Origin: Vicinamibacterales bacterium
GTDB lineage: Bacteria; Acidobacteriota; Vicinamibacteria; Vicinamibacterales; UBA8438
Assembly: GCA_036012905.1 (NCBI GenBank)
Contig: DASCQF010000109.1
Coordinates: forward strand, 55,757 to 119,756
DNA length: 64,000 bases
Direction of reading: 5' to 3'
The position numbers and the translations under genes are program-made. Shown in pieces: positions 2,163 through 37,793 of this stretch (its first letter is position 1; the number at the start of each line of letters is the position of its first letter). The notes beneath the pieces were generated by a model. It made no database searches and was not told the DNA's origin. It was given only the letters and a program-made list of their open reading frames with translations.

Positions 2163-2405
2163 TTCCTCTGTCCTCCCCTCCGCACGACGACCGTCCTGTG
2201 CGGCTTTCTTGAGCTATGGATGCGGTATCCGCGCACACTGTACCTGAGGTGCCCGGAAGGGGTCAACGGCTGAAGTGGTTCTCGGATATGACGGGCATCA
2301 CTTGGCGAGCGGGGCCCACTTCGATAAGATCTGGGGCCTGTCTGCACGGCGGTGCCCGCCTCCTCCACGGCACAGCGCTATAAAGATGATTCGGACCTGG
2401 AAGAG

Positions 2406-2984
2406 ATGAGCGTGGACCCGATGAGCGCCCGACCGGCCCGTATTGCCCTGCTCTGCGCCATCGCGATGCTGCTTGGCTCTGGGGCGTTCTCGATCTTCAG
2501 CGCCCAGGAGCCTGAACCGGGCGAAACGGCTGCCGCGGCAATGGAAGATGCTCCGACCGGCGTGGCGGACCCCACGGCACAGCCGATCGCCTTCAGTCAC
2601 GCGCACCACGTGACCGAGATCGGCATCGACTGCCAATTCTGTCACGCGTACGCGAGACGCGGACCAATCGCCGGCATCCCGTCAGTCCGGCGCTGCGCTG
2701 GTTGTCACGAGACCGTGTTGAGCGAGGAACCGGAGATTCTGAAGGTGCTCGAGTACTTTGAGAACGAGGAGCCGATTCCGTGGGTACGGGTGCACGACCT
2801 CCCGGACCACGTGCGGTTCACGCACAAGTCGCACGTCCGCGCCGGGGTAGAGTGCGCGGACTGTCACGGCAGAGTCGAGGAAATGGAGGCGGCCGTGCAG
2901 GTCGAGTCGCTCAGCATGGGCTGGTGCCTGAGCTGTCACAAGGAGCGTGACGTGACGCGGGACTGTTTGGCATGCCATCACTAG
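2406..2984 (+). CDS. actA: Pentaheme cytochrome c, alternative complex III subunit ActA
   Basis: Five CxxCH motifs (CQFCH, CAGCH, CADCH, CLSCH, CLACH), QPIAFSH, WVRVHDLPDHVRFTH and LSMGWC. Start 2406 or 2421. Confidence 0.9.
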   Translation: MSVDPMSARPARIALLCAIAMLLGSGAFSIFSAQEPEPGETAAAAMEDAPTGVADPTAQPIAFSHAHHVTEIGIDCQFCHAYARRGPIAGIPSVRRCAGCHETVLSEEPEILKVLEYFENEEPIPWVRVHDLPDHVRFTHKSHVRAGVECADCHGRVEEMEAAVQVESLSMGWCLSCHKERDVTRDCLACHH

Positions 2985-3063
2985 AGGCACGCCTTATCAC
3001 GTGCGTGCGGCATCGCGGGTCTGAGAAACCGTCGCTGCGTCAGGTACAGGAGATGAAGAGTCG

Positions 3064-6000
3064 GTGAGCCGGGGCAAGTCATCGCTGGTCGAGGTGGTCG
3101 AGCGTCGCACGTTCCTCAAGGTGCTGGGGAGCGCCGGCCCGGCGGCGGCGATCGCCGCCTGCTCGCCCGTGCCACCCGAGAAGATTATCCCGTTCGTGAT
3201 CCCGCCCGAGGACGTCATCCCCGGGGTCGCCACCTGGTATGCCAGCGTGTGCGACGAGTGTCCGGCCGGCTGCGGCACCCTGGTGCGCACCCGCGAAGGT
3301 CGGGCGGTCAAGGTCGAGGGCAACCCCGAGCACCCGGTCAACCGGGGCGGACTGTGCGTCCGGGGCCAGTCGTCGCTGCAGGGGCTCTACAACCCGGACC
3401 GGATCACCGGTCCGCAGCGCCGCCGTGTCACCAACGAGGCCGCCGGGCAGAGCGTGCTCGAGCCGGTGCCCTGGGACGAGGCGCAGCAGCAGCTCGTCGA
3501 TCGGCTGCAGACGCTCCGTGACGCCGGCCGTGGCGACCGGGTCGCGCTCGTCACTCCTCCGCTGACCGGCACGATGGCGACCCTGGTCTCCACCTGGGCG
3601 GACGTCCTGGGCGCGCGCTGGGTGCGCTACGAGCCGTTTGCCTACGAAGCGATTCGCCGGGCCAACGCACAGCTGTTCGGACGCGCCGAGCTGCCGCACT
3701 TCGACTTCGCGCGGGCCGACCTGCTGGTCTCGTTCGGCGCCGACTTTCTCGAGACGTTTGTCTCACCGGTCGGCTTCGCCCGCGACCACGCCGGCCAGCG
3801 CCGTGTTCGCGACGGGGAAAAGGCCCGATTCGTCCAGATCGAGCCGCGGTTGTCGATGACGGGCGCGAGTGCCGACGTCTGGCATGCGGTGCCCCCAGAA
3901 ACCGAAGGCCTCGTGGCCGCGGCGATGGTGCGGACGATTGTCGATGAGGGGCGGGCGCAGGGCGTGACCGCCGGGCTTCTCGAGCAGATCGCGGCGCTCG
4001 TCGATGGCGCGTCACCGAACCAGGTCGCCGTGACAAGCGGAGTCTCCGCCGACACCATCCGTGAGCTGGCCCGCGCGTTCTCGGACCCGGCACTGGGCCC
4101 GGGCCGCACCCTCGCCGTGGGCGGGGGCGTTGGCGTCTCCGGCTCGAACGCCACCGCGTCGCACACGGCGGTCACCCTGCTGAACCTGGTCGCGGGCAAC
4201 ATCGGTGCGACCGTCGACTTTTCGGCCGCCTCCGCCCTCGGCACGGCCGCAACCTACGCCGAGATGCGTGACCTGGCCGACGCCATGCGGTCGGGTGATA
4301 TCGAGCTGGCGATCATCCACAATGTCAACCCGGTCTTCACGATGCCGGGAGCCGCCGACTTCGGGGGCGCGCTGGCGCAAGTGCCGTTCGTCGCCGGGCT
4401 GTCGAGCCTGCCGGACGAGACGACCGCACAGGCCGACCTGCTGCTCCCCACCCACACCGCACTCGAAGCGTGGGGCGACAGCAATCCCCGTCACGGTGTG
4501 CATGGCCTGGTCCAGCCGGTGATGCAGCCGGTGTTCGACACCCGGCACGTCGGCGAGGTGCTGGCCGAAGTCGGACGGGCGCTGGGTGACGAACCGGCGG
4601 CCGCGCTGCCGCGGCGTGGGTTCTACCGCTTTCTGCGAGACGAGTGGGAGCAGCTGCAGCCGGTGCCCGAACCGGACCCCGAGGCCGAGGAGCCGGTCGC
4701 ACCCGATTTCGAGCCGTTCTGGGCGGACGCCCTCCGACGGGGCGGCATCACCCTGCCGGTAGAGCCGGTCTCCTTCGAGCTGAGTCCGGCGATCTTCGAC
4801 ACCGATCTGGTCGGCGATCTGACCCCGGCGTCGACCGCCCGAGCCTACACGCTGGTGACCTACCCCTCGCTGCACTTCTACGACGGCCGCGGCGCCAACC
4901 GCCCGTGGCTCCAGGAGATTCCGGAGCCGCTGCTCAAGACGACGTGGGGCACCGGGGTCGAGATGACCTCGGACACCGCACGCGCTCTCGGCGCCGAGGA
5001 AGGCCGCCTGGTCGCGATCGAGTCCGACCACGGTCAGGTCGACGCGAGCGTCATCATCAACCCGCATCTGGCGGACGGCGTGGTCGCGATCGCCATCGGA
5101 CAGGGGCACACCAACTTCGGACGCTACGCCACCGGCCGCGGGGTGAACCCGATCGCCCTGCTCGACCCAGAACCGGAGGCCGCCTCGGGCGGCGTGCGGT
5201 GGCTCGGCACCGGTGTGGACATCACCCCGCGCGAGTTGGAGCGCCCAATTCCGCGGCTCCAGTACACCTTCGACCAGGACGGACGCGAGCTGGCGCAATC
5301 GGTGTCGCTGGCGACCCTGGCGGCCGGAGAGGCGCACGCCGAGGAGCACCACTTCAGCCTGTACCCGGAACACGACCATCCGGTGCATCACTGGGGGATG
5401 GCGATCGACCTGGACGCCTGCACCGGGTGCAATGCCTGTGTGGCCGCCTGCTATGCCGAGAACAACATCCCGGTCATGGGCGCTGACCGGATGCGCCGCG
5501 GCCGCACGATGTCGTGGCTGCGGATCGAGCGGTTCGTCGAACCGGGCGCGGGGGACGCGGGACCGGACACCCGGTTTCTACCGATGCTGTGCCAGCATTG
5601 CGACCACGCGCCGTGTGAGGTGGTGTGTCCGGTCTACGCGACCTATCACACCGACGAGGGGTTGAACGCGCAGGTCTACAACCGCTGCGTCGGCACCCGC
5701 TACTGCTCGAACAACTGTCCCTACAAGGTCCGCCGGTTCAACTGGTTCATGCCGGAGTTCGACGCGCCGCTGCCGCTGCAGCTGAACCCGGACGTCACCG
5801 GCCGAAGTGACGGGGTGATGGAGAAATGCACTTTCTGTGTGCAACGCATCTATGACGGGAAGGACGTCGCCCGGGACGAGAATCGCCCGGTGCGGGACGG
5901 CGACGTGCTACCGGCGTGCGGGCAGAGCTGCCCGACGCAGGCGATCGTCTTCGGCGACACGAACGACCCCGGGAGCCGGGTGTCCCAGCTCTCGAACGAT

Positions 6001-6078
6001 GCACGCGCGTATCACGTGCTGAGCGTGATCAACACCCGGCCGGCGGTGACGTATCTGAAGAAGGTGACGCAGGCATGA
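3064..6078 (+). CDS. actB: ACIII subunit ActB: molybdopterin-oxidoreductase-fold domain fused to a multi-[Fe-S] ferredoxin domain
   Basis: Tat motif ERRTFLK plus lipobox AIAAC. C-terminal CTGCNACVAAC, CQHCDHAPC, CVGTRYCSNNCP and EKCTFC motifs. Operon position fits. Confidence 0.92.
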   Translation: MSRGKSSLVEVVERRTFLKVLGSAGPAAAIAACSPVPPEKIIPFVIPPEDVIPGVATWYASVCDECPAGCGTLVRTREGRAVKVEGNPEHPVNRGGLCVRGQSSLQGLYNPDRITGPQRRRVTNEAAGQSVLEPVPWDEAQQQLVDRLQTLRDAGRGDRVALVTPPLTGTMATLVSTWADVLGARWVRYEPFAYEAIRRANAQLFGRAELPHFDFARADLLVSFGADFLETFVSPVGFARDHAGQRRVRDGEKARFVQIEPRLSMTGASADVWHAVPPETEGLVAAAMVRTIVDEGRAQGVTAGLLEQIAALVDGASPNQVAVTSGVSADTIRELARAFSDPALGPGRTLAVGGGVGVSGSNATASHTAVTLLNLVAGNIGATVDFSAASALGTAATYAEMRDLADAMRSGDIELAIIHNVNPVFTMPGAADFGGALAQVPFVAGLSSLPDETTAQADLLLPTHTALEAWGDSNPRHGVHGLVQPVMQPVFDTRHVGEVLAEVGRALGDEPAAALPRRGFYRFLRDEWEQLQPVPEPDPEAEEPVAPDFEPFWADALRRGGITLPVEPVSFELSPAIFDTDLVGDLTPASTARAYTLVTYPSLHFYDGRGANRPWLQEIPEPLLKTTWGTGVEMTSDTARALGAEEGRLVAIESDHGQVDASVIINPHLADGVVAIAIGQGHTNFGRYATGRGVNPIALLDPEPEAASGGVRWLGTGVDITPRELERPIPRLQYTFDQDGRELAQSVSLATLAAGEAHAEEHHFSLYPEHDHPVHHWGMAIDLDACTGCNACVAACYAENNIPVMGADRMRRGRTMSWLRIERFVEPGAGDAGPDTRFLPMLCQHCDHAPCEVVCPVYATYHTDEGLNAQVYNRCVGTRYCSNNCPYKVRRFNWFMPEFDAPLPLQLNPDVTGRSDGVMEKCTFCVQRIYDGKDVARDENRPVRDGDVLPACGQSCPTQAIVFGDTNDPGSRVSQLSNDARAYHVLSVINTRPAVTYLKKVTQA

Positions 6079-7409
6079 GCTTCGCCAAGGTCAACGACGA
6101 CATACTGCGGACACTGCGACCGCCGGGCGGGTTGTACTTCGTCGGGCTTGCCCTGGCGATCGTCGCCTTCTCGGTCGGCTTGGTGGCGTTTCTGCACCAA
6201 GCCCGGACCGGCATGGGGGTTGCCGGCTACGAACATCCCATTCTCTGGGGCATCTACATCACCAACTTCGTGTTCTGGGTCGGCATCGCGCACTCCGGCA
6301 CGCTGATCTCGGCGGTCCTGTTTCTCTTCCGGGCCAAGTGGCGCACGGCGGTGGCGCGCGCGGCCGAGGCGATGACGGTGTTCGCGGTCATGACCGCGGG
6401 GTTGTTTCCGATTATCCACATCGGCCGCCCGTGGTTCTTCTACTGGCTGTTCCCGTACCCGAACCAGCGGGAGCTGTGGGTGAACTTCCGGTCGCCGCTG
6501 GTCTGGGACGTCTTCGCCATCAGCACCTACCTGACGGTGAGCGCGATGTTCCTGTATCTCGGACTGATGCCGGACATCGCTGCCGTGCGCGACAAGATCA
6601 AGGACTGGCGCCAGCCGATTTACCGCGTGCTGTCACTTGGCTGGCTCGGAACGGACAGGCAGTGGCGACACCACACCGCGTTGTACGGCTTCTTCGCCGC
6701 GCTGGCGACCCCGCTCGTCGTCTCGGTCCATAGCGTCGTGTCCTGGGACTTCGCGACGTCGATCCTGCCGGGGTGGCACAGCACCATCTTCGCGCCCTAC
6801 TTCGTCGCCGGAGCCATCTTCTCGGGGCTCGCGATGGTGATCACCCTGCTGGTGCCGATGCGGCGGATCTTGAAGCTGGAGAGCTACATCACCGTGCATC
6901 ACTTCGAGAACCTCTCGAAGCTGATGCTGACCACCTCGCTCATCGTGGGCTACGCGTATATGACGGAATTCTTCATCGCGTGGTACAGCGGCAGCCCATT
7001 CGAACAGGGGACGTTCATCGATCGGATGTTCGGGCAGTACTGGGGCTTCAGCTGGATGATGTTCACGTGCAACGTGCTCATTCCGCTGCTGCTCTTCTCA
7101 AAGGCGATCCGCACCAATCTGACGTCGTTGTTCGTCATCTCGATCTTCGTCAACATCGGGATGTGGCTGGAGCGGTTCGTGATCATCATGACGTCGCTCT
7201 CGCACGATCTCGACCCGGCGAACTGGGCGGGCGTCTATCGGATCACCTGGGTGGAGACGAGCATCACCATTGGAGCGTTCGGGCTGTTCTTCACGTTGTT
7301 TTTGCTGTTTGTGAAAAATTTTCCGGCCGTCTCGATCACCGAGCTGAAAGAAACGATGGAGCGGCCGGCCGAGGCCGACCCGGCCACTGCCTGGCCGGAA
7401 CCTGTGTAG
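6075..7409 (+). CDS. actC: ACIII subunit ActC (NrfD/PsrC-like quinol-binding membrane subunit)
   Basis: ITNFVFWVGIAHSGTLISA, SPLVWDVFAISTY and SVHSVVSWDF motifs. ATG at 6075 overlaps the actB stop (ATGA). Confidence 0.93.
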   Translation: MSFAKVNDDILRTLRPPGGLYFVGLALAIVAFSVGLVAFLHQARTGMGVAGYEHPILWGIYITNFVFWVGIAHSGTLISAVLFLFRAKWRTAVARAAEAMTVFAVMTAGLFPIIHIGRPWFFYWLFPYPNQRELWVNFRSPLVWDVFAISTYLTVSAMFLYLGLMPDIAAVRDKIKDWRQPIYRVLSLGWLGTDRQWRHHTALYGFFAALATPLVVSVHSVVSWDFATSILPGWHSTIFAPYFVAGAIFSGLAMVITLLVPMRRILKLESYITVHHFENLSKLMLTTSLIVGYAYMTEFFIAWYSGSPFEQGTFIDRMFGQYWGFSWMMFTCNVLIPLLLFSKAIRTNLTSLFVISIFVNIGMWLERFVIIMTSLSHDLDPANWAGVYRITWVETSITIGAFGLFFTLFLLFVKNFPAVSITELKETMERPAEADPATAWPEPV

Positions 7410-7416
7410 CGCCATC

Positions 7417-7920
7417 ATGCCAGAGCAAGTGGAGATTCTCGGCATCTACGACCGCAGCGCGAAGGCGGCGGTCGGCGCCCGCGCAGTCCTCGACGGGGGG
7501 CTGGGCGCGGTGGTCGCCTATGCGCCGGTGCCGGACCACGCCCTCGACCGCGCGTTGCACGTCACCGTCAGCCCGATACGGCTGTTCGTGCTGATCGGAG
7601 GGCTACTCGGGTGCGCCACAGGATTCGTTTTTCCGATCTACACGGTGCTCGACTGGCCGTTGATCACCGGCGGCAGACCGCTCATCTCCATTCCGCCCTT
7701 CGTAGTCATTGCGTTCGAGTTGACGATCCTGTTCGCGGCGGTCAGCGGTATGGCCGGGTTCCTGCTGATGTCGAGGCTGCCGCGCGTCACCGGCCGGCCG
7801 GCGCCCGACGCGCGGTTCACGAACGACATGACGGGTGTCAGCGTGTCCTGCGCGCCAGAGCAGTCGGCGAGCGTGCGGGCGTGTCTCGAACGAACGGGCG
7901 CACACGAGATCAGGGAGTGA
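7417..7920 (+). CDS. actD: ACIII subunit ActD (DUF3341)
   Basis: Two TM segments, WPLITGGRP and FELTILFAA motifs, position after actC. Confidence 0.85.
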   Translation: MPEQVEILGIYDRSAKAAVGARAVLDGGLGAVVAYAPVPDHALDRALHVTVSPIRLFVLIGGLLGCATGFVFPIYTVLDWPLITGGRPLISIPPFVVIAFELTILFAAVSGMAGFLLMSRLPRVTGRPAPDARFTNDMTGVSVSCAPEQSASVRACLERTGAHEIRE

Positions 7921-8426
7921 TGATGGGTAAAGCGACATTGTCGGCGTGGGGACGACGGCTCTTCCTGATCGCGTTGCTTCTCGCGATGACCGGCGCCGTC
8001 ACGTCGGCGCAGCTGAGATTCATGCGCAACATGTTCACGAGCCCGGTCGTGCAGCCGCAGGTAGCGCCGCGGGTGCCGGTTGAGGACACGATCCCGGTCG
8101 ACGGAACCCAGATCCTGGACAAGATATCGTCGATAGACCTGCCCAACCCCCGGCCCAACACGCCCGAGGTGCTGCAAGAGGGCGCGTGGCTGTACGGGGT
8201 CTATTGCGCCGTGTGCCACGGCGCGGACGGGCAGGGCGACGGGCAGATCGCCGAGCACTTCCGGCGAATGCCGAGCATGCCCAGCATCCAGAACCGTACC
8301 GACGGGTTGATCTACGCCATCATCCGCGAGGGCGGAGCCAACATGCCGGCGTTCGCAGACACGATGAGCGTCGATGAACGATGGGCGCTCGTGCACTTCA
8401 TCCGGACGTTTAGAACGCCAGAATGA
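7920..8426 (+). CDS. actE: Monoheme cytochrome c, ACIII subunit ActE-like
   Basis: Single CAVCH, NMPAF (candidate Met ligand), DERWALVHFIR and an N-terminal hydrophobic segment. Start overlaps the actD stop. Confidence 0.85.
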   Translation: MMGKATLSAWGRRLFLIALLLAMTGAVTSAQLRFMRNMFTSPVVQPQVAPRVPVEDTIPVDGTQILDKISSIDLPNPRPNTPEVLQEGAWLYGVYCAVCHGADGQGDGQIAEHFRRMPSMPSIQNRTDGLIYAIIREGGANMPAFADTMSVDERWALVHFIRTFRTPE

Positions 8427-9679
8427 TCTCCGTCGGCACTCCGGTCGTTTCGGACGGCACTCGCCGCCTCTATCTCGGCGCCGGTCTCGTAGGCGCGGCG
8501 GCGTTTCTGTACGGCGTGTTCCTGGGCGACAGCATTCGGGCGTGGCAGTCGTTGCTGGTGAACTTCCTGTTCTTCGGCGGGCTGGCGCAAGCGGGCGTCG
8601 TGCTCTCGGCGATCATGCAGGTGACCACGTCGCGGTGGGGCCGAGCGCTGAAGCGCACCGCCGAGGCGACGTCGGCGTTCCTCCCGGTCGCGTTCCTACT
8701 GTTGCTCGTGTTACTGGCCGGCGTGTCCGCGTGGGCGCCGTGGGTGCACGACCCGGTCGAGGCCAAGCAGGCCTGGCTCAACATCCCGTTTTTCGTAACA
8801 CGCCAGATTCTCGGGTTCTTGCTGCTCAGCGGGATCAGCCTGCTCTACGTGTACCGGTCGGTGCGTCCGGACCTCGGGATGCTCGACCAGTCGGGCGAGC
8901 ACACGGCGGACGGGTTCGCGCGTCGGCTGATCGCCGGCTGGCGCGGTATCCACGAGGAGCGCGAAATCGCCCAGCGAGCTCAGAGCCGGCTGGCACCGGC
9001 GGTGCTGATTGCCTATGGGTGGATTTTCACCCTGGTCGCGTTCGACTTCTTCATGTCGCTGGACCCGCACTGGTTCTCGACATTGGCGGGCGGCTACTAC
9101 TTCATCGGTAACCTGTTCATCGGGCTCGCCTTTCTGGCGGTCGTCGCGGTCTGGGCGCGCGAACGGTTGCAGCTGACGGAATATCTCGGCCCCCACCAGT
9201 TGCACGACGTAGGCAAGCTGCTCTTCGGCTTCTGCATCCTCTGGGCCTACATGTTCTGGTCACAGTATCTGGTGATCTGGTTCGGCGACCTGCCCGAGGA
9301 GACCGAGTTCATCTATCACCGGATGAACGGCGCCTGGGCGCCACTCGCCTGGACCGTGTTCGCCATGGCGTTTGTCATCCCGTTTGTTGTGCTACTGAGT
9401 CGCGCCGTGAAGACCAGTCCGCGCGGACTGACGGCCATCGCGTGTGTGGGTCTCGTCGGCATGTGGCTCGAGCGCTTCATCCTGGTGTCCCCGTCGCTGT
9501 GGCACGGCGAGGGTGTCCCACTGGGTGTCATCGAGCTGCTCGTCACCGCCGGCGTGCTGGGATTGTTCGCGTGGTGCTACACGACGTTCCTCCAGACCCT
9601 CCCAGTGCTGCCATTGGCCGATCCTCGTCTAGAGCCGGCGTCGGCCCATCCCCAGGCGCACGATCTCCATGCGGGGTAA
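8423..9679 (+). CDS. actF: ACIII subunit ActF (NrfD-like membrane subunit)
   Basis: Polytopic protein with MSLDPHWFST, HDVGKLLFGF and SQYLVIWFGDLPEE motifs. Confidence 0.9.
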   Translation: MISVGTPVVSDGTRRLYLGAGLVGAAAFLYGVFLGDSIRAWQSLLVNFLFFGGLAQAGVVLSAIMQVTTSRWGRALKRTAEATSAFLPVAFLLLLVLLAGVSAWAPWVHDPVEAKQAWLNIPFFVTRQILGFLLLSGISLLYVYRSVRPDLGMLDQSGEHTADGFARRLIAGWRGIHEEREIAQRAQSRLAPAVLIAYGWIFTLVAFDFFMSLDPHWFSTLAGGYYFIGNLFIGLAFLAVVAVWARERLQLTEYLGPHQLHDVGKLLFGFCILWAYMFWSQYLVIWFGDLPEETEFIYHRMNGAWAPLAWTVFAMAFVIPFVVLLSRAVKTSPRGLTAIACVGLVGMWLERFILVSPSLWHGEGVPLGVIELLVTAGVLGLFAWCYTTFLQTLPVLPLADPRLEPASAHPQAHDLHAG

Positions 9680-13353: not shown

Positions 13354-14442
13354 CTAATAAATAAGCATCGCAACGACGAAGACGACGATGGCGAGCATGA
13401 CGACCCACTGCCAGATTTCCTGCTGGTCCTCGGCTGGGATCAACTGGAAGGAAATACTGCGGTGGGAGTCGACGACATTGCGGAGGAAGGCACTCGAGGT
13501 CACTTGCGGGCTATCAACGATGAACGTGCGGCCACCAGTGCGCTGCTCAATCCCACCGAGGTTGTCGAGCGCAAGCCGCGTACGCTGCCCCTCGAGGTCC
13601 GCCTCGAGCGTCTCGTCGTAGTCGACGCCACGGACGTAGTCCGTCAAGACCGAGTCGACGTTCGCCCCGGTGCGGCTGCCGATCGCGACCGGATAGATCA
13701 CCAAGCCGCGGCGGCGGAACTCGCCGAGCGCCACATCCATCCGACTCATCTGCTCGGCGTCGCTGAGAAAGTCGCCATCGGTGAAGAGCAGCACCAACCG
13801 ATCGCTGCGTTCCTCCGGCGTCCAGTTGTCCTCCCCTTCTTCGAATCGGTCCTGGTTGTCGAGCGACAGGTAGATCGATTCGAACGCCATCGCCACGTCG
13901 CTGTCCCACGGAAAGGCATCCCCAGACAGCGTCGGCGGTGGCCCAATGCGGCCCACCGCCTCGACGAACCGCTCCGCGTTCGACGACATGTGCACGCGCC
14001 GCAGCGCGGTGGTCCCCCAGACGAAAACGGCCGTTCGGTCACCCGGCGTCAGGATGTCCTGCGTGTAGAGGCTCAGCGCCTCCCGAACCGCCAGCTCCAG
14101 CCGCGAAGGGCCCAGGTCCTTGACCCACATCGACGCCGACGCATCGATGGCGACCACGACGTCTACGTCACCCCGCTTGAAGCTCGACCCGCCGTAGATC
14201 CAGAACGGGCGGGCCGCTGCAATCGCCACCAGCGTCAGCGCGCCGATCGCCAGGAACCAGAACTTGATGTGGCCGAAGAGCGGATAGCGCGAGCCCTCGG
14301 TGCGCGCCGGGCGCAGCTGCAGTCGGACCGCAAAGACCAGCAGCCCTAACACCAGCAGTAACCCGGCGATCGGCACGACCGCCAGATACTCCGGGTTGGC
14401 GAACTCGACGCTCTCCTGAAACAGACTGGCGATGGCGTCCAT
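13354..14442 (-). CDS. Membrane-anchored vWA domain protein (MxaL-like position)
   Basis: MIDAS motif DASAS plus FTDGD, N- and C-terminal TM helices, last gene of the MoxR cassette. Confidence 0.85.
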   Translation of the reverse strand: MDAIASLFQESVEFANPEYLAVVPIAGLLLVLGLLVFAVRLQLRPARTEGSRYPLFGHIKFWFLAIGALTLVAIAAARPFWIYGGSSFKRGDVDVVVAIDASASMWVKDLGPSRLELAVREALSLYTQDILTPGDRTAVFVWGTTALRRVHMSSNAERFVEAVGRIGPPPTLSGDAFPWDSDVAMAFESIYLSLDNQDRFEEGEDNWTPEERSDRLVLLFTDGDFLSDAEQMSRMDVALGEFRRRGLVIYPVAIGSRTGANVDSVLTDYVRGVDYDETLEADLEGQRTRLALDNLGGIEQRTGGRTFIVDSPQVTSSAFLRNVVDSHRSISFQLIPAEDQQEIWQWVVMLAIVVFVVAMLIY

Positions 14443-14452
14443 GGCGTGTGTG

Positions 14453-14479
14453 GCAGGCGGCCCTGAAGGGCCTTGCTAC
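14453..14479 (-). repeat. GTAG-type REP-like palindrome
   Basis: Minus strand reads gtagcaaggcccttcagggccgcctgc, i.e. GTAG followed by a ggccc-ttca-gggcc hairpin. Confidence 0.5.
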
Positions 14480-14535
14480 CGCGTGTCGGCGTTGTCCGTG
14501 GCGACCCTGCCTATCGGCGACAGCCCGCAGGAACA

Positions 14536-14593
14536 GAGGCCGGCGAAGCCCTCCGGCCTTCTTCTGACTTCCGACTTCTGACTTCTGACTTCT
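14536..14593 (+). repeat. Repeat family A, copy 2 (TTCTGAC heptamer tail)
   Basis: gaggccggcgaagccctccggccttcttctgacttccgacttctgacttctgacttct. Confidence 0.8.
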
Positions 14594-14606
14594 CGAGCAT
14601 CAGCTG

Positions 14607-15272
14607 CTACCCTCGGCGGCGACGAACAGGTGTGCCCTCGCCCTTCATCTGCTCCAGCTCGGGCGGCTCGATCTCGCGCGGCGGCTCGAGCGCGCGACGG
14701 ATCGCCTCGGGGTTACTCGTCAGATCGTAGTTCCACTTGTAGTCGAAATTGTCGGAGAGGTCTCCACGCAGCGCTCGCTCGTAGTCGGCGTTCACCGTCT
14801 CCATCACTTCGAGGATAATCGCTTCCTTCATGACCTGCGCGTTCGGATTCTCGCCGTCAATCGCGCGGTAGCGTTGCCGCGCCAGCATGAATTTCGCGCT
14901 CGCCAGCAGGTAGGAGGCCCGTGGGTCGTCGATGTCGTCGGCCAGGTCGGCCACCACACTCTCGTAATCGCCGGTCAGGTAGCTGTAGGACGCCTGCTGC
15001 AGAAACGCGTCCTGAAACAGATACGACTCGGCGACCGCCTGCATTCCCCAGAGGCGGCTTCCTTCGTAGAAAGCGGTCACTTCTGCCAGCTGTGCCTCCG
15101 CGCCGTCGAAATCGCCGCGCCGGACACTGTCACTCAGTCCGTCGAGATTCGAGTAGAAGCCGGCCAAGCTCCGTGACGGCACCGACACGCCGAAAAAGAA
15201 CAGCAGCGCCAGGACGAAACCAACGAGGTAGCGGAAAGAATTTTCCTTGTCGAGCAGGTCTGTCAATCGCAT
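14607..15272 (-). CDS. Membrane-anchored helical/TPR-like protein (MxaK-like)
   Basis: One N-terminal TM and a helical body. YERALRGDLSDNFDYKWNYDL resembles the terminal TPR-like motif of MxaK/BatC. It lies between two vWA genes. Confidence 0.7.
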   Translation of the reverse strand: MRLTDLLDKENSFRYLVGFVLALLFFFGVSVPSRSLAGFYSNLDGLSDSVRRGDFDGAEAQLAEVTAFYEGSRLWGMQAVAESYLFQDAFLQQASYSYLTGDYESVVADLADDIDDPRASYLLASAKFMLARQRYRAIDGENPNAQVMKEAIILEVMETVNADYERALRGDLSDNFDYKWNYDLTSNPEAIRRALEPPREIEPPELEQMKGEGTPVRRRRG

Positions 15273-15301
15273 ATTGTCTGTCCCTGACCAGGACGTCTGA
15301 A

Positions 15302-15354
15302 GACGAAGCCGGCGAAACCCGCAGGTTTCTCCTGCCTCCTGAGTCCTGTCTCCT
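15302..15354 (+). repeat. Repeat family A, copy 3
   Basis: gacgaagccggcgaaacccgcaggtttctcctgcctcctgagtcctgtctcct. Confidence 0.8.
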
Positions 15355-15359
15355 TTGTC

Positions 15360-16490
15360 CTACGGGCTCGTGCCCCAGAGCAACTCCGACATGAATCCCA
15401 GCGGAATGCCGACCACCAGCAGCCCCATCGCCACCAGCAAGAACCGCGAATAGATCGGCACCTTCAACGCCCGGTGCCGCAATTCCACCCGTACCGCCTC
15501 ACGCTCGTCGATCGCCTCATAGGCGCGCGCCAGGCTGTCCTCATCGGTGACGTCGAAGTAGTCGCCGCCATAATCCTGGATCTGCGACACCAGCTGCGGC
15601 ACCGTCGGATGCAGGAAGCTCGCTGTGCGCGCGTCGCTGGTGTTGATGTAGATGACGTAGGGCACGATGTTCCGCTTGCTGAGCTCCTCGAACTCCGCGT
15701 CCGGGAACTCGTCGACCGCCGCATCGGTGATGATCAGCACTGCTCGGTTCTGGTTCGTGCCCCCGCCGACTGTCGCCTCGTCCTGGTCGAAGTACCTCAC
15801 GATGTCCTGGAGCGGGCGGATGATGTTGGTGTCCCCCTCGGCCGGAATAATCCGCACCTTGTCGATGGGCACCACCATCGCCTTGTCGAGCCGCTGGGTC
15901 ATCACATACGGCGCGTCCCACACCTGGAAGTAATACCACTCGTCGTCCATGACGAAGTCGTCCACCATGTAGGGATAGGTGGAGAACAGCCAGAGCGACA
16001 CGCGGTCATTCTTCTCGCGCCGCATCTCGAGGAACTCGAGATGCGCGTCACGCGCTACTTCGGCCTTCGACTTGTTGGTGTCGGGAAACTCCCACGCCAT
16101 CGAGCCCGACGTGTCGACCAGATCAATCCGGACCCGCGACTCGACGTAGCCGCTCACCTCCTCGGTGGCGGTCAGGAACGGGTCGGCGACCGACACGATG
16201 AGCAGGACGAGCGCAGCCGCAAGCAACAGCTTCGGCGCGCTGTGCACCAGCCGGATCCACAGGCGCTTCTGATGGCCTGCCTCGATGACGTGCCCGGAAT
16301 GCTGGCGGGCGTGTCGTTTCTGCCTGGCGGCCAGCCGAAGCACCGTCAGCGCCAGCGCCACGCCGACACCGATGGCGAGCCAAATCGCCATACCGACGTC
16401 GCCATACCGGATCTGGGTGAAATCGGTCTCGACCAGCTCGCGGACTCCGGCATCGAGAAACGCGACTAGCTCCGACCAGGGCACTAACAT
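15360..16490 (-). CDS. Membrane-anchored vWA domain protein (MxaC/BatA-like)
   Basis: MIDAS motif DTSGS plus IITDA, YEAIDERE and terminal TM helices. Confidence 0.85.
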   Translation of the reverse strand: MLVPWSELVAFLDAGVRELVETDFTQIRYGDVGMAIWLAIGVGVALALTVLRLAARQKRHARQHSGHVIEAGHQKRLWIRLVHSAPKLLLAAALVLLIVSVADPFLTATEEVSGYVESRVRIDLVDTSGSMAWEFPDTNKSKAEVARDAHLEFLEMRREKNDRVSLWLFSTYPYMVDDFVMDDEWYYFQVWDAPYVMTQRLDKAMVVPIDKVRIIPAEGDTNIIRPLQDIVRYFDQDEATVGGGTNQNRAVLIITDAAVDEFPDAEFEELSKRNIVPYVIYINTSDARTASFLHPTVPQLVSQIQDYGGDYFDVTDEDSLARAYEAIDEREAVRVELRHRALKVPIYSRFLLVAMGLLVVGIPLGFMSELLWGTSP

Positions 16491-16504
16491 AAATGCAGGT
16501 CCCG

Positions 16505-17611
16505 CTACCGTCCCACCAGCGCCTTCAGGCTGTTGAGCAACCGCACGTGCGGCCGCAGCAGCTTCAGCGCCTCTTCCATCGACCGGGCCTCTTCTCCCGG
16601 GCTCTCGATCGGCGCCGGCTCATCGTGCTCGAGACCGTACTGGTATGCCACCAACCGGCCGGTCAGCGTGCGCAGGGCTTCCTTGCGCGGTCCGTCGGCA
16701 AGCGCCTCGGCGTGTCGCTGCATGTCGAGCACGGTGTCACCGGGGTGCAAGTCCGGCAGCTCTGCGTGCAGATAGTCGCGCAGCGACAGGACCAGCCCAC
16801 GTTCGACCTCGGTCAGTATGGGTGCGTCGGCGCTCGGCGACACATCCTGCAGCGCCGACAGTTGGCGGTTCAGCGCACGCCGTGCATCCCAGATCGACGG
16901 CGGCACTGGAATCTGCGCCTCGAGCCGCGCCAACTCCTCTGCTTCCTGGGCCTTCTCGAGCGAGATCGCTTTCGGCTTGCGGGCCGACCGGACCAGCATC
17001 ACGAGCCAGACGAACAGCGGCAGCGGCGCCACGGTCCAGGCAAGCGTCCGGAAGAACGTCGCGCGGCCACTAAAGGCGCCCAGTTCGATGGTGTCGCGGA
17101 TGGCAAGCACCGGTTCGTCGGTAATGGTCGAGACATACCGGACCAGGCCCTGTCCGCCGTCGACCTGCTGCACCTCGGCATCCTCGATATCCTCGCCCAG
17201 GTCGCGGACAAGATAGTAGAAGCTGAAGTTTGGCAGCAGGTAGGTCATCTTGCTCGGGTCAACCAGGCGAAACCCGTAGGTGAAGGTCCAGATGTGCTCA
17301 TCCTCCACCCGGCTCCTCTCGATGGTCAGCGAGACTCCTTCGAACGGGTGCACCGGCAGCGTCTCCGGCGCCATCCGGTCCTCGAGAATGATGATCTCCT
17401 GCCCCTCGCTGATCAGGTCCGGGAACCGGACGCGGTAGGGCTGGATGAGCAGGTCGCCGGTTTTGAGGACGGTCGGCTGCAACTCCAAGGTCTCGACGCG
17501 CACCGGCCCGACCGGCGCCTCGCTCATGTCGGGCGGTTGCGCGGCGCTGGTCGCGGACGTGAGAACTAGGGCGACGCCGAGAACGATCGCGTGTGTGCGT
17601 GTCATGTCCAT
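16505..17611 (-). CDS. Single-pass membrane protein (MxaA-like position)
   Basis: Signal peptide, beta-rich periplasmic part, one TM and a helical tail. Third gene of the MoxR cassette. Confidence 0.7.
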   Translation of the reverse strand: MDMTRTHAIVLGVALVLTSATSAAQPPDMSEAPVGPVRVETLELQPTVLKTGDLLIQPYRVRFPDLISEGQEIIILEDRMAPETLPVHPFEGVSLTIERSRVEDEHIWTFTYGFRLVDPSKMTYLLPNFSFYYLVRDLGEDIEDAEVQQVDGGQGLVRYVSTITDEPVLAIRDTIELGAFSGRATFFRTLAWTVAPLPLFVWLVMLVRSARKPKAISLEKAQEAEELARLEAQIPVPPSIWDARRALNRQLSALQDVSPSADAPILTEVERGLVLSLRDYLHAELPDLHPGDTVLDMQRHAEALADGPRKEALRTLTGRLVAYQYGLEHDEPAPIESPGEEARSMEEALKLLRPHVRLLNSLKALVGR

Positions 17612-17625
17612 CCGTGGCTGGTGCG

Positions 17626-18543
17626 CTAGCGGGCTGTGCGCGAAATCAGGAACTTGGGCAACGCCTCGATGTGATTCTCCGGAGTCAGCACGACAGAATC
17701 GATACCAGCCTGATACTTCAGCTTGTATTGCAGCGACTCGCGTGACTCTTCAATCCGGCGCCGGATCGCGCCCGCCTTGCGGGCCGAGATCACGGTCTGT
17801 TTTCCGGTCTCCATGTCCGAGATCCTGATGTACCCCAAGCGGCTCTTGACGCGAAACTCCTCAGGATCATCCAGAATGAGCACCATCATATCGTGCTTCG
17901 ACGCCAGCGTGCTCAGCACCTTGAAATCGATGGCATCGGGGTCGTTCACCAAGTCGACGAGGTCGGTCAAAACGATGACCGAGTACCGCATCTTCAGCCG
18001 CGCGATCATGAAGTCGAGCGCGACCTTCAAATGTGCCGTGCGACGGGTCGGGAACTCGCGCTCGAGCTTCATCTTCTCGAAGATCTGCTGCGCCATGTAG
18101 AAGACCTGCGAGGTGCCGAGCTTGGGCCTCAGATACATCTCGATACGGTCGGAGTAACCGAGCAGACCCACCGGGTCGCGCACGTTGGCGCGAGTCAACC
18201 CGATGTTGCCCAGCAGATCGAGCATCAAGAGCGCCTTGTTCGACTCCTGCGAGATCTGGAAGAGCGTGGAGTAGGACAGGTCGCACACAACGAGCGTGCG
18301 GAGCTCCTTGGGCTCCATCCGCTCGATCTTGTAGAGCTTCTCGGGGAACGTGCGGAGACTGAGGGCCCAGGCGACATCCTTCAGGGGTTGGCCCGGCCGC
18401 CACTGCTCGACCCCCACGATATCGTAGCCGGCCCCCTTGAACCCGCTCTTGTGCTCGCCGAAATGAACACTCGTGGAGCGCTTCCTCGCCCGAATGCCGT
18501 GTTTGATGTCGCGGAACCGGGCAAAGACCTCGTCTACTTCCAC
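17626..18543 (-). CDS. DUF58 family protein (MxaS-like)
   Basis: GEHKSGFKGAGYDI..WRPG..DVAW and VVCDLSYS motifs. GTG start at 18543 with GGAGG 7 nt upstream, overlapping the moxR stop. Confidence 0.85.
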   Translation of the reverse strand: MEVDEVFARFRDIKHGIRARKRSTSVHFGEHKSGFKGAGYDIVGVEQWRPGQPLKDVAWALSLRTFPEKLYKIERMEPKELRTLVVCDLSYSTLFQISQESNKALLMLDLLGNIGLTRANVRDPVGLLGYSDRIEMYLRPKLGTSQVFYMAQQIFEKMKLEREFPTRRTAHLKVALDFMIARLKMRYSVIVLTDLVDLVNDPDAIDFKVLSTLASKHDMMVLILDDPEEFRVKSRLGYIRISDMETGKQTVISARKAGAIRRRIEESRESLQYKLKYQAGIDSVVLTPENHIEALPKFLISRTAR

Positions 18544-19649
18544 GGCGGAACCTCCATGTCCCGCACAATCTGCTGGAGCAGCTCTTCCTTGTCGACCGAG
18601 AACTCCATGCCCTCGCGAAGCACGAGCCGGTGTGCCAGCACCGGGAGAGCGACCGCCTTGATATGGTCCGGCGTGATCACCGTGTCGCCATTGAAGAACG
18701 CAAACGTTCGGGCCACCGCTTCGAGGTGAAAATGGACGCGTGGCGAGATCCCCACCCGGATATACTCCCTCACCGTGCGGGCGGCGCGCCCAACAACGCG
18801 GTGCGGCCGTGTGTTCCGGATCAGCCGCACCTTGTATTGCTGGGCGTAATCGGACATTTTCACGTTGTCGAAGATGTAGCGCGCGATGTCGAGCACCTCG
18901 TAGAGGTCGGTCAGCTTCTCGACCTTGCGCCCGACGACGTTGCTGGCGCTGATCTTCAGCTCGTCCTCCTCCTCCTCCGGATCCAGCATGTTGATCGAGA
19001 GGGTTGTCCGGTCGAGCTGCGCGACGGGATTGGCGAAGGTGCCTTCCTCCTCGCCAAAAATGTTCTCGGTGCAAATCACCATGAAGAACCGGGGCCCCTC
19101 GATGTCACTGAAGTCGCACGACAGGGGGAACAACGGCAGAATCTTGCCCTCGGCGAGGTTGCCGTAATCGGAGCTGAGCGTCGCAGAGCTCTCCTCCATC
19201 CCTTCGAGCACCGCCGCCTTGGTCTTACCCGACAACCGGTTGTCCTCGTCGATGAGCACGATGTGCGCCATCAACTTGCCCGGCTTGAAGTGCATCTTCC
19301 GGGTACCGTCGAGCTCCTCGACGATCGTCTCATAACCCAGGATGTCTTCCGGCATGTAGGTCGGCATGCCCTGGATCCGCTCGAACTTTGCGTCGATCGC
19401 CATCGCACAGGCGCTCACCAGGTCGGTCTTGCCGGTGCCGGTCGGCCCCCTGAACATGATGTGGGGCTGACGCAGCAACTTGCTCTGGCTCAACTTGTCG
19501 GTATACGGCAACAGCGTGAAGAAGGCCCAGGACAGGATGCGAGCGGCATCGTCCAGACCGTAGAGCCACTTGGTCGACTCCTTCTGGAACCGCTGGACCA
19601 CCTCGTTGGCCCGGTCGAAGTCGACGGTGCGCGTGGGTTGAACGGCCAT
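18534..19649 (-). CDS. moxR: MoxR family AAA+ ATPase (MxaR-like)
   Basis: Walker A GPTGTGKT, Walker B IVLIDEDNR, AVLEGMEE, AQLDR, GISPR and VLAHRL. ATG at 19649 follows a GAGAGAG RBS. Confidence 0.9.
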   Translation of the reverse strand: MAVQPTRTVDFDRANEVVQRFQKESTKWLYGLDDAARILSWAFFTLLPYTDKLSQSKLLRQPHIMFRGPTGTGKTDLVSACAMAIDAKFERIQGMPTYMPEDILGYETIVEELDGTRKMHFKPGKLMAHIVLIDEDNRLSGKTKAAVLEGMEESSATLSSDYGNLAEGKILPLFPLSCDFSDIEGPRFFMVICTENIFGEEEGTFANPVAQLDRTTLSINMLDPEEEEDELKISASNVVGRKVEKLTDLYEVLDIARYIFDNVKMSDYAQQYKVRLIRNTRPHRVVGRAARTVREYIRVGISPRVHFHLEAVARTFAFFNGDTVITPDHIKAVALPVLAHRLVLREGMEFSVDKEELLQQIVRDMEVPPWK

Positions 19650-19911: not shown

Positions 19912-22311
19912 TCACCGAATGCCGGCACCGACGGTGAACCCGACGTAGACCTCCCGGCCCGGCGACGGCTCGAAGTAGCGACCGCCGAACGCATTGGTGA
20001 TGCCGGACGAGTTGTAGCGCTCGTCGAAGACATTGTCGATACCGATGAACGGCCGGATGTCGGTGTCACCCCAGGTCGTGTCGAACCCGAACCGCAGGTC
20101 GACGACGGTGTAGGACCAGTTGAAGACCGTGTTGGCGTTGTTCAGGGTGAACTCGTCGACCCACCGAACCGTTGCGCCCGACCGCAGGCCGAACGGCGCG
20201 GTGTAGTTGACCCCGCCAAAGAACCGGTGCGGCGGCGCGCCCGGCTCGTCGTTACCCGCGAAGTCGGATGAGCCGGTGTTGAACTCCTCGAATACGAAAT
20301 CCTGATAGGTGTAGGCGAACCGCGTGCTGAAGCTCGGGGTCGGCACGAAGTCGAACGCCAGCTCGAACCCGTCGCGCGACGCCTTCCCGGCGTTGCGAAA
20401 GAAGTCCTGCGAGAGGGGGTTCTGAAACGATACGAGTGCGTTGTCCACGGTGGAGACGAAGACGGTCGCCTCGTACCGTAGTCGGGCCGGCTCGATGAGT
20501 CCCCGCACCCCGACCTCGACGCTGCTCAGATCCTGAGGCTCGAGCTCCTGATTGAACCCGCCGGCCCCTGTCTCCGTGTTCGACAGCTCGACCGTTGTCG
20601 GTGTCTCGTAGGCGGTCGCGTAGTTGGCGAACAGGTTGACGTTGGGCGCGGCCGCCACAGTCACCCCGACCGATGGGCTGATCTGGTCCATGGTCCGGTC
20701 GCCTGACTGGTCTCCGTCGTCCAGCTTGCGGTCTCCGGCCGTGAAGTCGTAGTAGTCCCAACGGACCCCGGCGGTGAACTGGACAACATCGTTCGGCGCG
20801 ATGCCGACTTGCGCGAATGGTCCAGCCGACAGCACGTCCTCGGTCTGGTCGACCGCCAACGCGCCGTTGGTCGCATCGCCTCCCGAAATGACGGGCGCCA
20901 CTTGTCCGAACTCCATGCGGTCGTCGTTCTGCGACGCGATGTCGAGACCGGCGGCCCACTCGAAACCAACGTCCCCGACCTGGGTTCCGCCCAGATACTC
21001 CGACCGGAAACCGAACCCAGAGCGCTCGAGCTCGATGTTCTGGAAGGCGCCGAGCGCATCGAGACGGCGCCACATTCCCCAGCCGGTGACGCGGAGCTGC
21101 TGCGTCTCGCTGAAGCGGTGGTCCACGGTCAGGCCGTACTGCCCTTGGTTGGTCCCCTCGCCCCAGTGTCTGGCCACCGCGACGCCACGGGCCAGGCACG
21201 CCCCCGAGAGACAGTTGTCGTCGTCATCGCGGATTGGCTCGCCTCGGGCATCGGTTTCGTTCAGGAAACTGGGGCTCTCCGAAAACGGCGCCTCGTACAG
21301 GTTGAACACGCCGCGGATGTCGGTGCTGGGCGACAGCACGTGATTGACGACGACGTTGGCCTGGATGATCTCGGCGGCGCTGTTCTCGCGGAACCCGCTG
21401 GTCTCGAACCGGCTGGCGCTCGCCATGAACTGCGTGCCGGAATTGCCGCCCTCCAGCCTGACCTGCTGCCGGTTGTAGCCGTGGCTGCCGAACTGGATAT
21501 CCGGTGTGATCGTCAGGGGACGCGAGGTGTCGAACGTGGTGTTCAGGTTGATCACCCCACCGGCCGCGTTGCCGTAGAGCACGGAGCTCGGGCCCCGGAC
21601 CACGTCTATCCGTCCGACCGACCCGAGGTCGACGTTGCCCGGCTCCGTCGTGCCGTCGGCCGTCGTGATCGGGATGCCGTCCTGGATAATCGCCAGTCCG
21701 CGCAGACCGAACCTCGGCTGCGGCGCTCGGATACTGAGCCCGATGCCGCCCGAAAGGCCGTAGTTGCGCCGGTTCTGGACGAACAGGCCCGGAATGCCCC
21801 GCAGCGCCTCGTCGAGCGAGACGCGACGCTGGGAGTGCTCGATCTCATTGCGCTGAACGACAGCGACCGACTGCGGCACCGTCGAGAGCGCCTGGTTGGT
21901 CCGCATGACGGTCACCGACTCTGCGAGCGGCGCAATGGACAGGGACAGATCGACCATCGCCGATCCTCCCGCGGAGACGGTCACGGTCGTCGCGTCGCTT
22001 TCGAAGCCGGGTAGTGCTCCCCGCACCTCGTAACGCCCGGCAGGGAGGCGCGAGATTTCGTACCGCCCCCGACCGTCGCTTACGTCTGTCCGTGAACCTC
22101 CCGTATCGGTGTTGACCGCGGTCACCGCGACACCCGGCAACACGCCACCGCTTGTGTCCTCGATCGTGCCGCTGAGGGCACCCGTGCCACCCTGACCCGC
22201 CCAGCTCATCGCCACGCCGGCCAGCAGCAGCATCACCAACACCAACACGCCGCGGCCATATACCGTTCGAAGATTCGTCATCATCTCAAATCCTGTCAGT
22301 TCTCTTGCCAC
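19912..22311 (-). CDS. TonB-dependent receptor, YncD/PqqU-like, with N-terminal carboxypeptidase-regulatory-like domain
   Basis: Plug QNRRNY...LRGLAIIQDGIPITTADG...RGPSSVLYGNAAGGVIN, AYETPTTVELS and C-terminal GRYFEPSPGR. Start uncertain (22311 or a few codons later). Confidence 0.85.
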   Translation of the reverse strand: MARELTGFEMMTNLRTVYGRGVLVLVMLLLAGVAMSWAGQGGTGALSGTIEDTSGGVLPGVAVTAVNTDTGGSRTDVSDGRGRYEISRLPAGRYEVRGALPGFESDATTVTVSAGGSAMVDLSLSIAPLAESVTVMRTNQALSTVPQSVAVVQRNEIEHSQRRVSLDEALRGIPGLFVQNRRNYGLSGGIGLSIRAPQPRFGLRGLAIIQDGIPITTADGTTEPGNVDLGSVGRIDVVRGPSSVLYGNAAGGVINLNTTFDTSRPLTITPDIQFGSHGYNRQQVRLEGGNSGTQFMASASRFETSGFRENSAAEIIQANVVVNHVLSPSTDIRGVFNLYEAPFSESPSFLNETDARGEPIRDDDDNCLSGACLARGVAVARHWGEGTNQGQYGLTVDHRFSETQQLRVTGWGMWRRLDALGAFQNIELERSGFGFRSEYLGGTQVGDVGFEWAAGLDIASQNDDRMEFGQVAPVISGGDATNGALAVDQTEDVLSAGPFAQVGIAPNDVVQFTAGVRWDYYDFTAGDRKLDDGDQSGDRTMDQISPSVGVTVAAAPNVNLFANYATAYETPTTVELSNTETGAGGFNQELEPQDLSSVEVGVRGLIEPARLRYEATVFVSTVDNALVSFQNPLSQDFFRNAGKASRDGFELAFDFVPTPSFSTRFAYTYQDFVFEEFNTGSSDFAGNDEPGAPPHRFFGGVNYTAPFGLRSGATVRWVDEFTLNNANTVFNWSYTVVDLRFGFDTTWGDTDIRPFIGIDNVFDERYNSSGITNAFGGRYFEPSPGREVYVGFTVGAGIR

Positions 22312-22392: not shown

Positions 22393-22431
22393 CAAGAAAG
22401 AGCCTTCGCGGATCCTTCCCGCGAAGGCTCT
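22393..22431 (-). terminator. Intrinsic terminator after heme-propeller paralog 2
   Basis: Stem agagccttcgcgg/ccgcgaaggctct followed on the minus strand by TTCTTGTTT. Confidence 0.7.
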
Positions 22432-22462
22432 CCATTTGATTGGGACGACCCACCACACACAT

Positions 22463-35734: not shown

Positions 35735-35750
35735 CGCCGGCGTCCTCTCT

Positions 35751-37682: not shown

Positions 37683-37793
37683 CGGCGTCCTCCCCCAGCC
37701 ATGCTCTCATGGGGCACTGACAGTGGCATCTGCCGCCGCCCCGAATCGTCTGGCGTTTCCCGGCGACGGGGTCACGCCCCGCTTCCCACACGT

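Follow-up and report, generated by a model that had tools for sequence, protein, structure and literature searches.

The stretch analyzed in this work, hereafter the window, comprises 64,000 nucleotides from a Vicinamibacterales bacterium (Acidobacteriota; assembly GCA_036012905.1, contig DASCQF010000109.1, positions 55,757 to 119,756 of the forward strand). At positions 13354-19649 it contains six intact minus-strand open reading frames (ORFs) encoding a MoxR ATPase, a DUF58 protein, an Ig/transmembrane (TM) protein, a von Willebrand factor A (vWA) protein, a tetratricopeptide repeat (TPR)-like protein and a second vWA protein. This is the order of the mxaRSACKL genes, and the six genes are designated R, S, A, C, K and L hereafter. 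By analogy with the Mxa system, we propose with moderate confidence that they encode an ATP-driven trans-membrane machine, likely loading metal into periplasmic quinoproteins. The genes of the cassette are the following:

18534-19649, minus strand: R, MoxR-type AAA+ ATPase, 371 aa, without TM segment (Pfam AAA_3, 88 bits, and AAA_lid_2, 51 bits, over cut-off)
17626-18543, minus strand: S, DUF58 protein, 305 aa, soluble (Pfam DUF58, 72.6 bits), with the MIDAS-like motif DLSYS
16505-17611, minus strand: A, 368 aa, with a signal-like helix, a beta-sandwich (about residues 38-158), a TM helix (189-207) and a C-terminal helical domain
15360-16490, minus strand: C, membrane vWA protein, 376 aa (Pfam VWA_2), three hydrophobic segments, motif DTSGS
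14607-15272, minus strand: K, 221 aa, with an N-terminal membrane anchor, an all-helical TPR-like domain and a conserved basic C-terminal tail
13354-14442, minus strand: L, membrane vWA protein, 362 aa (Pfam VWA_2), three hydrophobic segments, motif DASAS

Gene content and predicted topology

R carries the Walker A motif GPTGTGKT and the Walker B motif IDEDNR. With its AAA_3 domain plus lid, intact Walker motifs and adjacent DUF58 and MIDAS (metal ion-dependent adhesion site) vWA genes, it is a MoxR ATPase of the kind that has DUF58 and vWA partners, and it is predicted to be the cytoplasmic motor of the system. The start of S, a GTG following GGAGG, overlaps the moxR stop as read from the sequence; its product is predicted to be the cytoplasmic partner of the ATPase. 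The MIDAS motifs DTSGS and DASAS announced by the original prediction, which had been made from the DNA letters alone, are indeed present. That of C is complete (D126-S128-S130/T221/D256) and invariant in 21/21 aligned copies, and that of L (D100-S102-S104/D222) is invariant in 22/22; each alignment includes 8 copies from distant loci of Yanofskybacteria (Patescibacteria) type.

A and K turned out to be more elaborate than first described. A had been called a single-pass protein, and it does have one TM helix, but it also has an N-terminal signal-like helix, and its AlphaFold model (predicted local distance difference test, pLDDT, 74) consists of a beta-sandwich, the TM helix and a helical tail; a fold search returned weak Ig-like matches only. 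K, described as a small helical protein, is all-helical and can be refined to a membrane-anchored, TPR-like protein (pLDDT 76), its best fold matches being mostly TPR proteins, none at E<=0.001. Searches of Pfam and NCBIfam with A and K gave no match, and the protein-atlas matches were clusters without names. Plasmid searches with L and with a Yanofskybacteria-type A gave no match, no relative was found in the viral contigs searched, and one single-protein metagenome scan was also empty.

R and S lack hydrophobic segments. Each of C and L has three and K a single one; A combines one such segment with its N-terminal helix. Since the loops that join TM segments one and two are basic, we infer that the vWA domains of C and L, the TPR domain of K and the beta-sandwich of A are periplasmic, and that R, S and the helical tail of A lie on the cytoplasmic side. 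In four RNA runs from two studies, all without a DNA control, near-identical contigs cover the cassette and the receptor gene upstream of it patchily and at low depth, none of them reaching from the receptor gene to moxR. Inside the cassette, the intergenic stretches 14443-14606 and 15273-15359 contain hairpins and short TCAGAAG-type repeats; the spacers differ in length from one relative to another, and sequence resembling them is also present elsewhere.

Conservation of the cassette

Twenty-five further places with the cassette were found, and the 21 loci compared here are the window plus 20 fetched from among them. The original prediction had assigned the genes to the mxaRSACKL order and not to the Bat order. 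This held in 21/21 loci by comparison with the mxa order rebuilt from mxaF loci, and the Bat references differ from it. MoxR is 78-94% identical among the loci, and the Walker B sequence, correctly noted before as IDEDNR, reads LIDEDNR in all 21 copies; DEDNR is peculiar to this acidobacterial clade, since the Yanofskybacteria orthologues described below read DEINR or DEVNR. Given this conservation, a chance run of ORFs was rejected, as was a dead ATPase in view of the intact Walker motifs and the identity of MoxR. Gene A was present in 23/24 genomes of the same family and in 1/16 genomes from other families of the order.

The upstream PqqU-like receptor gene

Two further features lie upstream of the cassette:

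19912-22311, minus strand: PqqU-like TonB-dependent receptor gene, 262 bp upstream of moxR on the same strand (NCBIfam, PDB and residue signature)
22397-22433, no strand assigned: terminator-like hairpin upstream of the receptor gene (consensus scan)

The best NCBIfam match of the receptor is PqqU (292.6 bits, under the NF041535 cut-off of 1200) and its best PDB match is E. coli PqqU (YncD; E 1e-66). The PqqU signature Y99/R304/R365, taken from the available part of PMC12124388, reads F/R/R in 15/15 receptor copies, with positions mapped by eye on a pairwise alignment in which the R304 match needs a local shift. The receptor thus keeps the aromatic/Arg/Arg signature of its best family and structural match. 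In contrast to E. coli PqqU, it has an extra N-terminal carboxypeptidase-regulatory-like domain, scores far below the family cut-off and does not keep Q84 and R536 in the pairwise alignment. From these sequence features the receptor is predicted to import pyrroloquinoline quinone (PQQ). PqqU has been reported in Vicinamibacteria (PMC12124388); a linkage to a MoxR module, as seen here, was not found in the available part of that source.

With 1430 bits versus 91 for the next receptor, this is the sole PqqU-like gene of the genome. Such a gene is the most constant neighbour of the cassette, lying within 4.4 kb of moxR in 15/21 loci and, in 10 of the 21, directly upstream (<300 bp) on the same strand. 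Twenty-two of 25 cassette genomes have one, within 5 kb in 17 cases, about 23 kb off in one, megabases off in one and on another contig in three. A consensus scan for terminator-like hairpins found none between receptor and moxR, although the scan is weak (4 sites versus 5.8 expected in shuffles).

Quinoproteins, PQQ synthesis and a second cassette

An MxaF profile search of this genome, which is 97% complete, returned 96 ORFs of at least 400 aa, with a best identity to MxaF of about 35%. At the catalytic Asp and the +2 position, 86 candidates read D-x-D, 8 N-x-D, 1 E-x-D and 1 D-x-T, and none of the 96 has the D-x-A site of MxaF type. The TIGR03075 cut-off was passed by 13 matches (98 of 205 candidates scored) and that of TIGR04528 by 1. 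Profile searches of the genome ORFs for MxaJ, MxaA, MxaK and BatD gave no match; the BatD profile, built from 6 sequences, detects BatD in other acidobacterial loci. The absence of a methanol dehydrogenase, first noted for the window, therefore extends to the genome searched, where no ORF exceeds about 35% identity to MxaF and MxaJ is not found, and on the same grounds a true mxa cluster with mxaF elsewhere was rejected. PQQ synthesis by the host was not detectable: pqqB gave a partial match only (E 1e-5), and pqqC was not found in a search whose control was also silent.

The same genome contains a second, highly divergent R-S-A-C-K-L cassette (contig C185:21694-27954). A broad A profile connects the A genes of both cassettes (E 1.8e-8), and the K gene of the second is present in 21/24 genomes of the family and 3/16 others. 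This type is widespread in the order, often twice per genome, and has a quinoprotein gene nearby in 4/20 loci, about what gene density would lead one to expect. Elsewhere in the genome (contig C11:8047-8916), a short Bat-type moxR of 289 aa, with no adjacent DUF58 or vWA partner seen, is perhaps the remnant of a lost Bat operon.

Relationship to the Mxa and Bat systems

Reference mxa clusters were gathered with a published mxaF primer, giving 80 loci with long flanks, in which MxaR was present in 67 and the other parts in 62-66 each, in the order J-R-S-A-C-K-L wherever present. In the Bat references, taken from plasmid records and from genomes of acidobacteria, the two vWA genes are neighbours, with the TPR gene and BatD after them (moxR-DUF58-gene 3-batA-batB-batC-batD-batE). 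The cassette shares with MxaRSACKL of methylotrophic Pseudomonadota the same six components in the same order, a TPR-like K between two membrane MIDAS vWA proteins and the lack of BatD, and it probably falls on the Mxa side of the tree, with moderate support. In contrast, it lies outside the Mxa clade, pairwise similarity is weak, mxaF, J, G and I are missing with a PqqU-like importer linked instead, and it occurs in two paralogous copies per genome and in Patescibacteria. As for the Bat operon, all six cassette parts have Bat homologues, whereas the cassette's TPR gene separates the two vWA genes and the genome gave no BatD match.

Trees were inferred under LG+C20, and for the careful MoxR tree a larger set of 79 rows was reduced to 45 by leaving out 34. 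In it, Mxa, both cassettes and the copies from the Candidate Phyla Radiation (CPR), presented below, split from Bat and other MoxRs (89/82, unstarred); quick four-gene trees recovered the same split with SH-aLRT values of 93 (42 rows) and 94 (22 rows). The Mxa rows formed their own branch (100/100), which excludes the cassette, and the cassette stood outside the Bat group in every tree. In approximately unbiased (AU) tests, a clade of cassette, CPR copies and Bat obtained p 0.036 on MoxR, and one of both cassettes, CPR copies and Bat was rejected on four genes (p 0.021, 22-row subset); the groupings were fixed after the first tree had been seen, and long-branch attraction pulls the same way. 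Judged by these sequence comparisons, the cassette belongs neither to Mxa nor to Bat but forms a lineage of its own, probably on the Mxa side.

The rival explanation that survives best, which we nevertheless regard as rather unlikely, is that the cassette is a fast-evolving, BatD-less offshoot of Bat with clients unrelated to PQQ, in which the TPR gene moved once independently and the PqqU neighbour is inherited synteny. Several results speak for it and thereby weigh against the proposal made above. Profiles of the cassette proteins score Bat above Mxa (median bits Bat/Mxa with n=6 for Bat: R 112/58, S 46/7, C 17/7, L 29/3), profile-profile comparison again places R, S, C and L nearer Bat, and A, with broadened profiles, matches Bat gene 3 (HH P98.2 over 253 columns) and has no direct MxaA match (P4), reaching MxaA only via an intermediate c3 family (P94 to MxaA). 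Profiles built from Mxa proteins, however, likewise give Bat higher scores than the cassette (R 174/86), and the raw scores are therefore in large part a matter of long branches. Within the Mxa set, C pairs best with MxaC (P97 versus 34) and L with MxaL (P91 versus 63), and K is the sole cassette protein nearer Mxa than Bat, if weakly (broadened profiles, MxaK P77-89 versus BatC P3-7). That such genes reshuffle is apparent from a third order in which the six genes occur without BatD (L352-L356 and L300; K-L-R-S-A-C or K-L-R-A-C-S), whose K and A bridge Mxa, Bat and the cassette in profile comparisons and which groups on the Bat/other side. Furthermore, on MoxR alone the AU test did not reject the union of both cassettes, CPR copies and Bat (p 0.156), the Mxa-side branch joins three long branches and was never starred, and the Yanofskybacteria keep the cassette mostly without an adjacent quinoprotein gene. 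What counts against a Bat offshoot is the position of the cassette outside Bat in all trees, the two lower AU values and the recurrence of PQQ-related neighbours in unrelated lineages. Of the two outcomes set against the original prediction, one was thus found, as there is no specific overall similarity to Mxa with R, S, C, L and A nearer Bat, and the other was not, as neither the lack of BatD nor the trees group the cassette with ordinary Bat operons.

An orthologous cassette in Candidatus Yanofskybacteria

A profile search with A returned 150 representatives, many of them distant; one near a Yanofskybacteria-type set was named Ca. Yanofskybacteria. A tight A sub-alignment led to 28 metagenome loci (GC 0.39-0.46). 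The complete set of six genes stands in order in 11 of them, and the remaining 17 are truncated at contig ends, with no different order seen in any. Their C, L and K proteins score 210-273, 219-274 and 77-108 bits, respectively, with the cassette profiles, far above the second cassette, Bat and Mxa, and MoxR, GroEL and neighbours in these loci are named Yanofskybacteria or Patescibacteria where they are named. In the careful MoxR tree these copies and the acidobacterial cassette are sisters (100/98).

A PQQ-fold gene abuts the cassette in 5 of the 28 loci, four times divergently upstream, likely by one event, and once directly downstream on the same strand; no further quinoprotein gene occurs in the 278,614 bp of these loci. 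The encoded proteins, 32-38% identical to quinoproteins of the acidobacterial genome, keep the propeller and, in 4/5, D-x-D. Both sites also host other variable genes. The five PQQ-fold genes are degenerate and shortened (465-502 aa):

L242:6608-8005, degenerate PQQ-fold gene
L251:6176-7672, degenerate PQQ-fold gene
L252:6180-7679, degenerate PQQ-fold gene
L256:1248-2750, degenerate PQQ-fold gene
L259:6150-7658, degenerate PQQ-fold gene

Besides, the Yanofskybacteria-type loci (L235-L262) have a conserved trypsin-like lipoprotein gene before moxR, often with an HExxH metalloprotease-like gene, and downstream a nucleotidyltransferase gene, an S55-like peptidase gene and, a few genes on, groEL.

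Co-occurrence and comparable cassettes elsewhere

Among 151 genomes of the order, with 8 TIGR03075 candidates scored per genome, 66 had a K match and 90 a TIGR03075 match at E<=1e-140. When a K threshold of 1e-20 was applied, chosen after the table had been seen and with 15 weaker K matches counted as negative, a top-scoring PQQ alcohol dehydrogenase was present in 45/51 strong-K genomes versus 45/100 others, kin not being independent. PQQ dehydrogenases are thus enriched with K, and are neither necessary nor sufficient for it.

A search of 401 Pseudomonadota genomes with an MxaK profile yielded 11 clear matches. The two most divergent (L340 and L341), the only ones opened, proved to be full Mxa-clade RSACKL cassettes with no mxaF in 20 kb, and no MxaF was found in the genomes concerned (G747 and G749), which have D-x-D or unrelated enzymes only. 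L340 has a TonB receptor gene immediately upstream of mxaR and, about 8 kb from the cassette, the gene of a WDFD-type dehydrogenase.

Several Bat-order operons (L165:6511-15348, L315:6310-15438, L313:7968-16562 and matches H51 and H54) stand beside genes for an arylsulfatase, a formylglycine-generating enzyme or a sulfatase maturase, and one adjoins cytochrome c and PQQ alcohol dehydrogenase genes. Bat may mature Ca-dependent periplasmic enzymes.

Other features of the window

An alternative complex III-like cluster (multiheme cytochrome, molybdopterin/Fe-S subunit, NrfD, ActD and cytochrome c) occupies positions 2352-9679 and is a possible electron sink for quinoproteins; as a client of the cassette it was rejected, being linked in only 5-6 of 21 loci. 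AMMECR1 and Memo genes, with a gene for a PAS hybrid histidine kinase between them, lie at 35201-38651.

Discussion

The original prediction had left the client of the cassette unknown. No client gene lies near it; the candidates can be narrowed to quinoproteins because the sole PqqU-like gene of the genome lies directly upstream and the genome has 96 quinoprotein genes. No classic Ca methanol dehydrogenase is found among these; with the gene of the predicted PQQ importer next to it, the module likely matures these other quinoproteins. The closest precedent, available to us in part of the source, is that each of the six Mxa genes is needed for Ca2+ insertion into MxaF, for which a MoxR/VWA complex was proposed: deletion of any of them yields folded, Ca-poor MxaF that Ca2+ rescues in vitro (PMC12276312). 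By the same logic, the six cassette proteins would likely form one membrane-spanning machine, in which MoxR and DUF58 would act in the cytoplasm and couple, via A's helical tail and the TM helices of the two vWA proteins, to a periplasmic side to which K would contribute its TPR domain, A its beta-sandwich and C and L their MIDAS-bearing vWA domains. The MIDAS sites may grip the client or hand over the metal. PQQ would enter via the upstream receptor, and the active-site metal would be loaded at the expense of ATP into PQQ-dependent dehydrogenases, as MxaRSACKL does for MxaF.

The metal loaded may be Ca or Mg, by analogy with Mxa and with glucose/sorbose dehydrogenases, or possibly a lanthanide, since 86/96 candidates carry D-x-D. 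D-x-D is used as a lanthanide mark, but characterised glucose dehydrogenases with other metals also have it (PMC11996626, available in part). A more far-reaching version holds that receptor and cassette form a quinoprotein-maturation operon, a Mxa-type machine loading lanthanides instead of calcium into some 100 dehydrogenases, and that this machine, along with PQQ-fold clients, was transferred between Vicinamibacterales and Yanofskybacteria; we consider it unlikely as a whole.

Besides the Bat-like scores discussed above, several observations argue against metal loading of quinoproteins. No quinoprotein gene lies within about 10 kb of the cassette in any of the 21 loci, and PQQ-unrelated neighbours are also syntenic in 10-13 of them, kin not being independent. 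A PqqU-like gene was not found in 3/25 cassette genomes and is far away in at least two, and the control of the pqqC search was silent. Whole families have the PQQ dehydrogenase and no K (8/8 versus 0/8 genomes in f12, 11/12 versus 0/12 in f18). In the Yanofskybacteria-type set, 23/28 loci, many of them cut short, have no adjacent quinoprotein gene, and the proteins of the five PQQ-fold genes that do occur have neither the vicinal cysteines nor the Glu and Asn ligands. Finally, the available part of PMC12276312 implies that XoxF-type enzymes do not need the six Mxa proteins.

A general metal-insertion chaperone serving several periplasmic metalloenzymes, such as Ca-dependent sulfatases, quinoproteins and others, is an explanation we find improbable. 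It would accommodate both the arylsulfatase, sulfatase maturase and PQQ alcohol dehydrogenase genes abutting Bat-order cassettes and the two paralogous cassettes of this genome, which suggest split client sets, whereas the only specific neighbours seen for the cassette clade itself are PQQ-related, and no sulfatase figures among the recognised neighbour clusters of the 21 loci, where no search was aimed at sulfatases. Folding or assembly of eight-bladed PQQ-fold propellers, or of the PqqU-like receptor, without metal insertion is very improbable: the Yanofskybacteria neighbours that keep propeller and D-x-D with other ligands lost, the nearby GroEL gene and the lack of an MxaJ-like PQQ-loading chaperone in the genome would suit it, but in the Mxa system neither the folding of MxaF nor its binding to MxaI depends on the six genes, and Ca2+ rescues the enzyme in vitro (PMC12276312, available in part); moreover, the MIDAS residues are invariant.

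A literature search, mainly of open-access main texts without supplements, found no description of the cassette, of the PqqU linkage or of the CPR copies, and none combining mxaK, mxaL and mxaC with Acidobacteria. What is new here is the PqqU linkage, the quinoprotein-rich genomes with two cassettes, the orthologues in the CPR and the phylogenetic tests. Envelope modules of the MoxR/DUF58/vWA kind are widely distributed, and Mxa is the only one with a proven client; in the available parts of the respective sources, the Ca insertion mechanism of Mxa itself is unresolved (PMC12276312) and the function of Bat "remains elusive" (PMC3557215). Marine Acidobacteria have been described with up to 70 predicted lanthanide quinoproteins, in a report whose available part does not mention MoxR (PMC11996626), and a marine habitat can be inferred for the present host. 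The cassette also occurs in reduced Patescibacteria, in some loci beside degenerate PQQ-fold genes. If the lanthanide-loading operon were true, MxaRSACKL would be a particular instance of a system that loads metal into quinoproteins in general. In any event, the locus constitutes a concrete candidate maturation system for the quinoprotein repertoire of marine Acidobacteria, for the testing of which an E. coli reconstitution exists.

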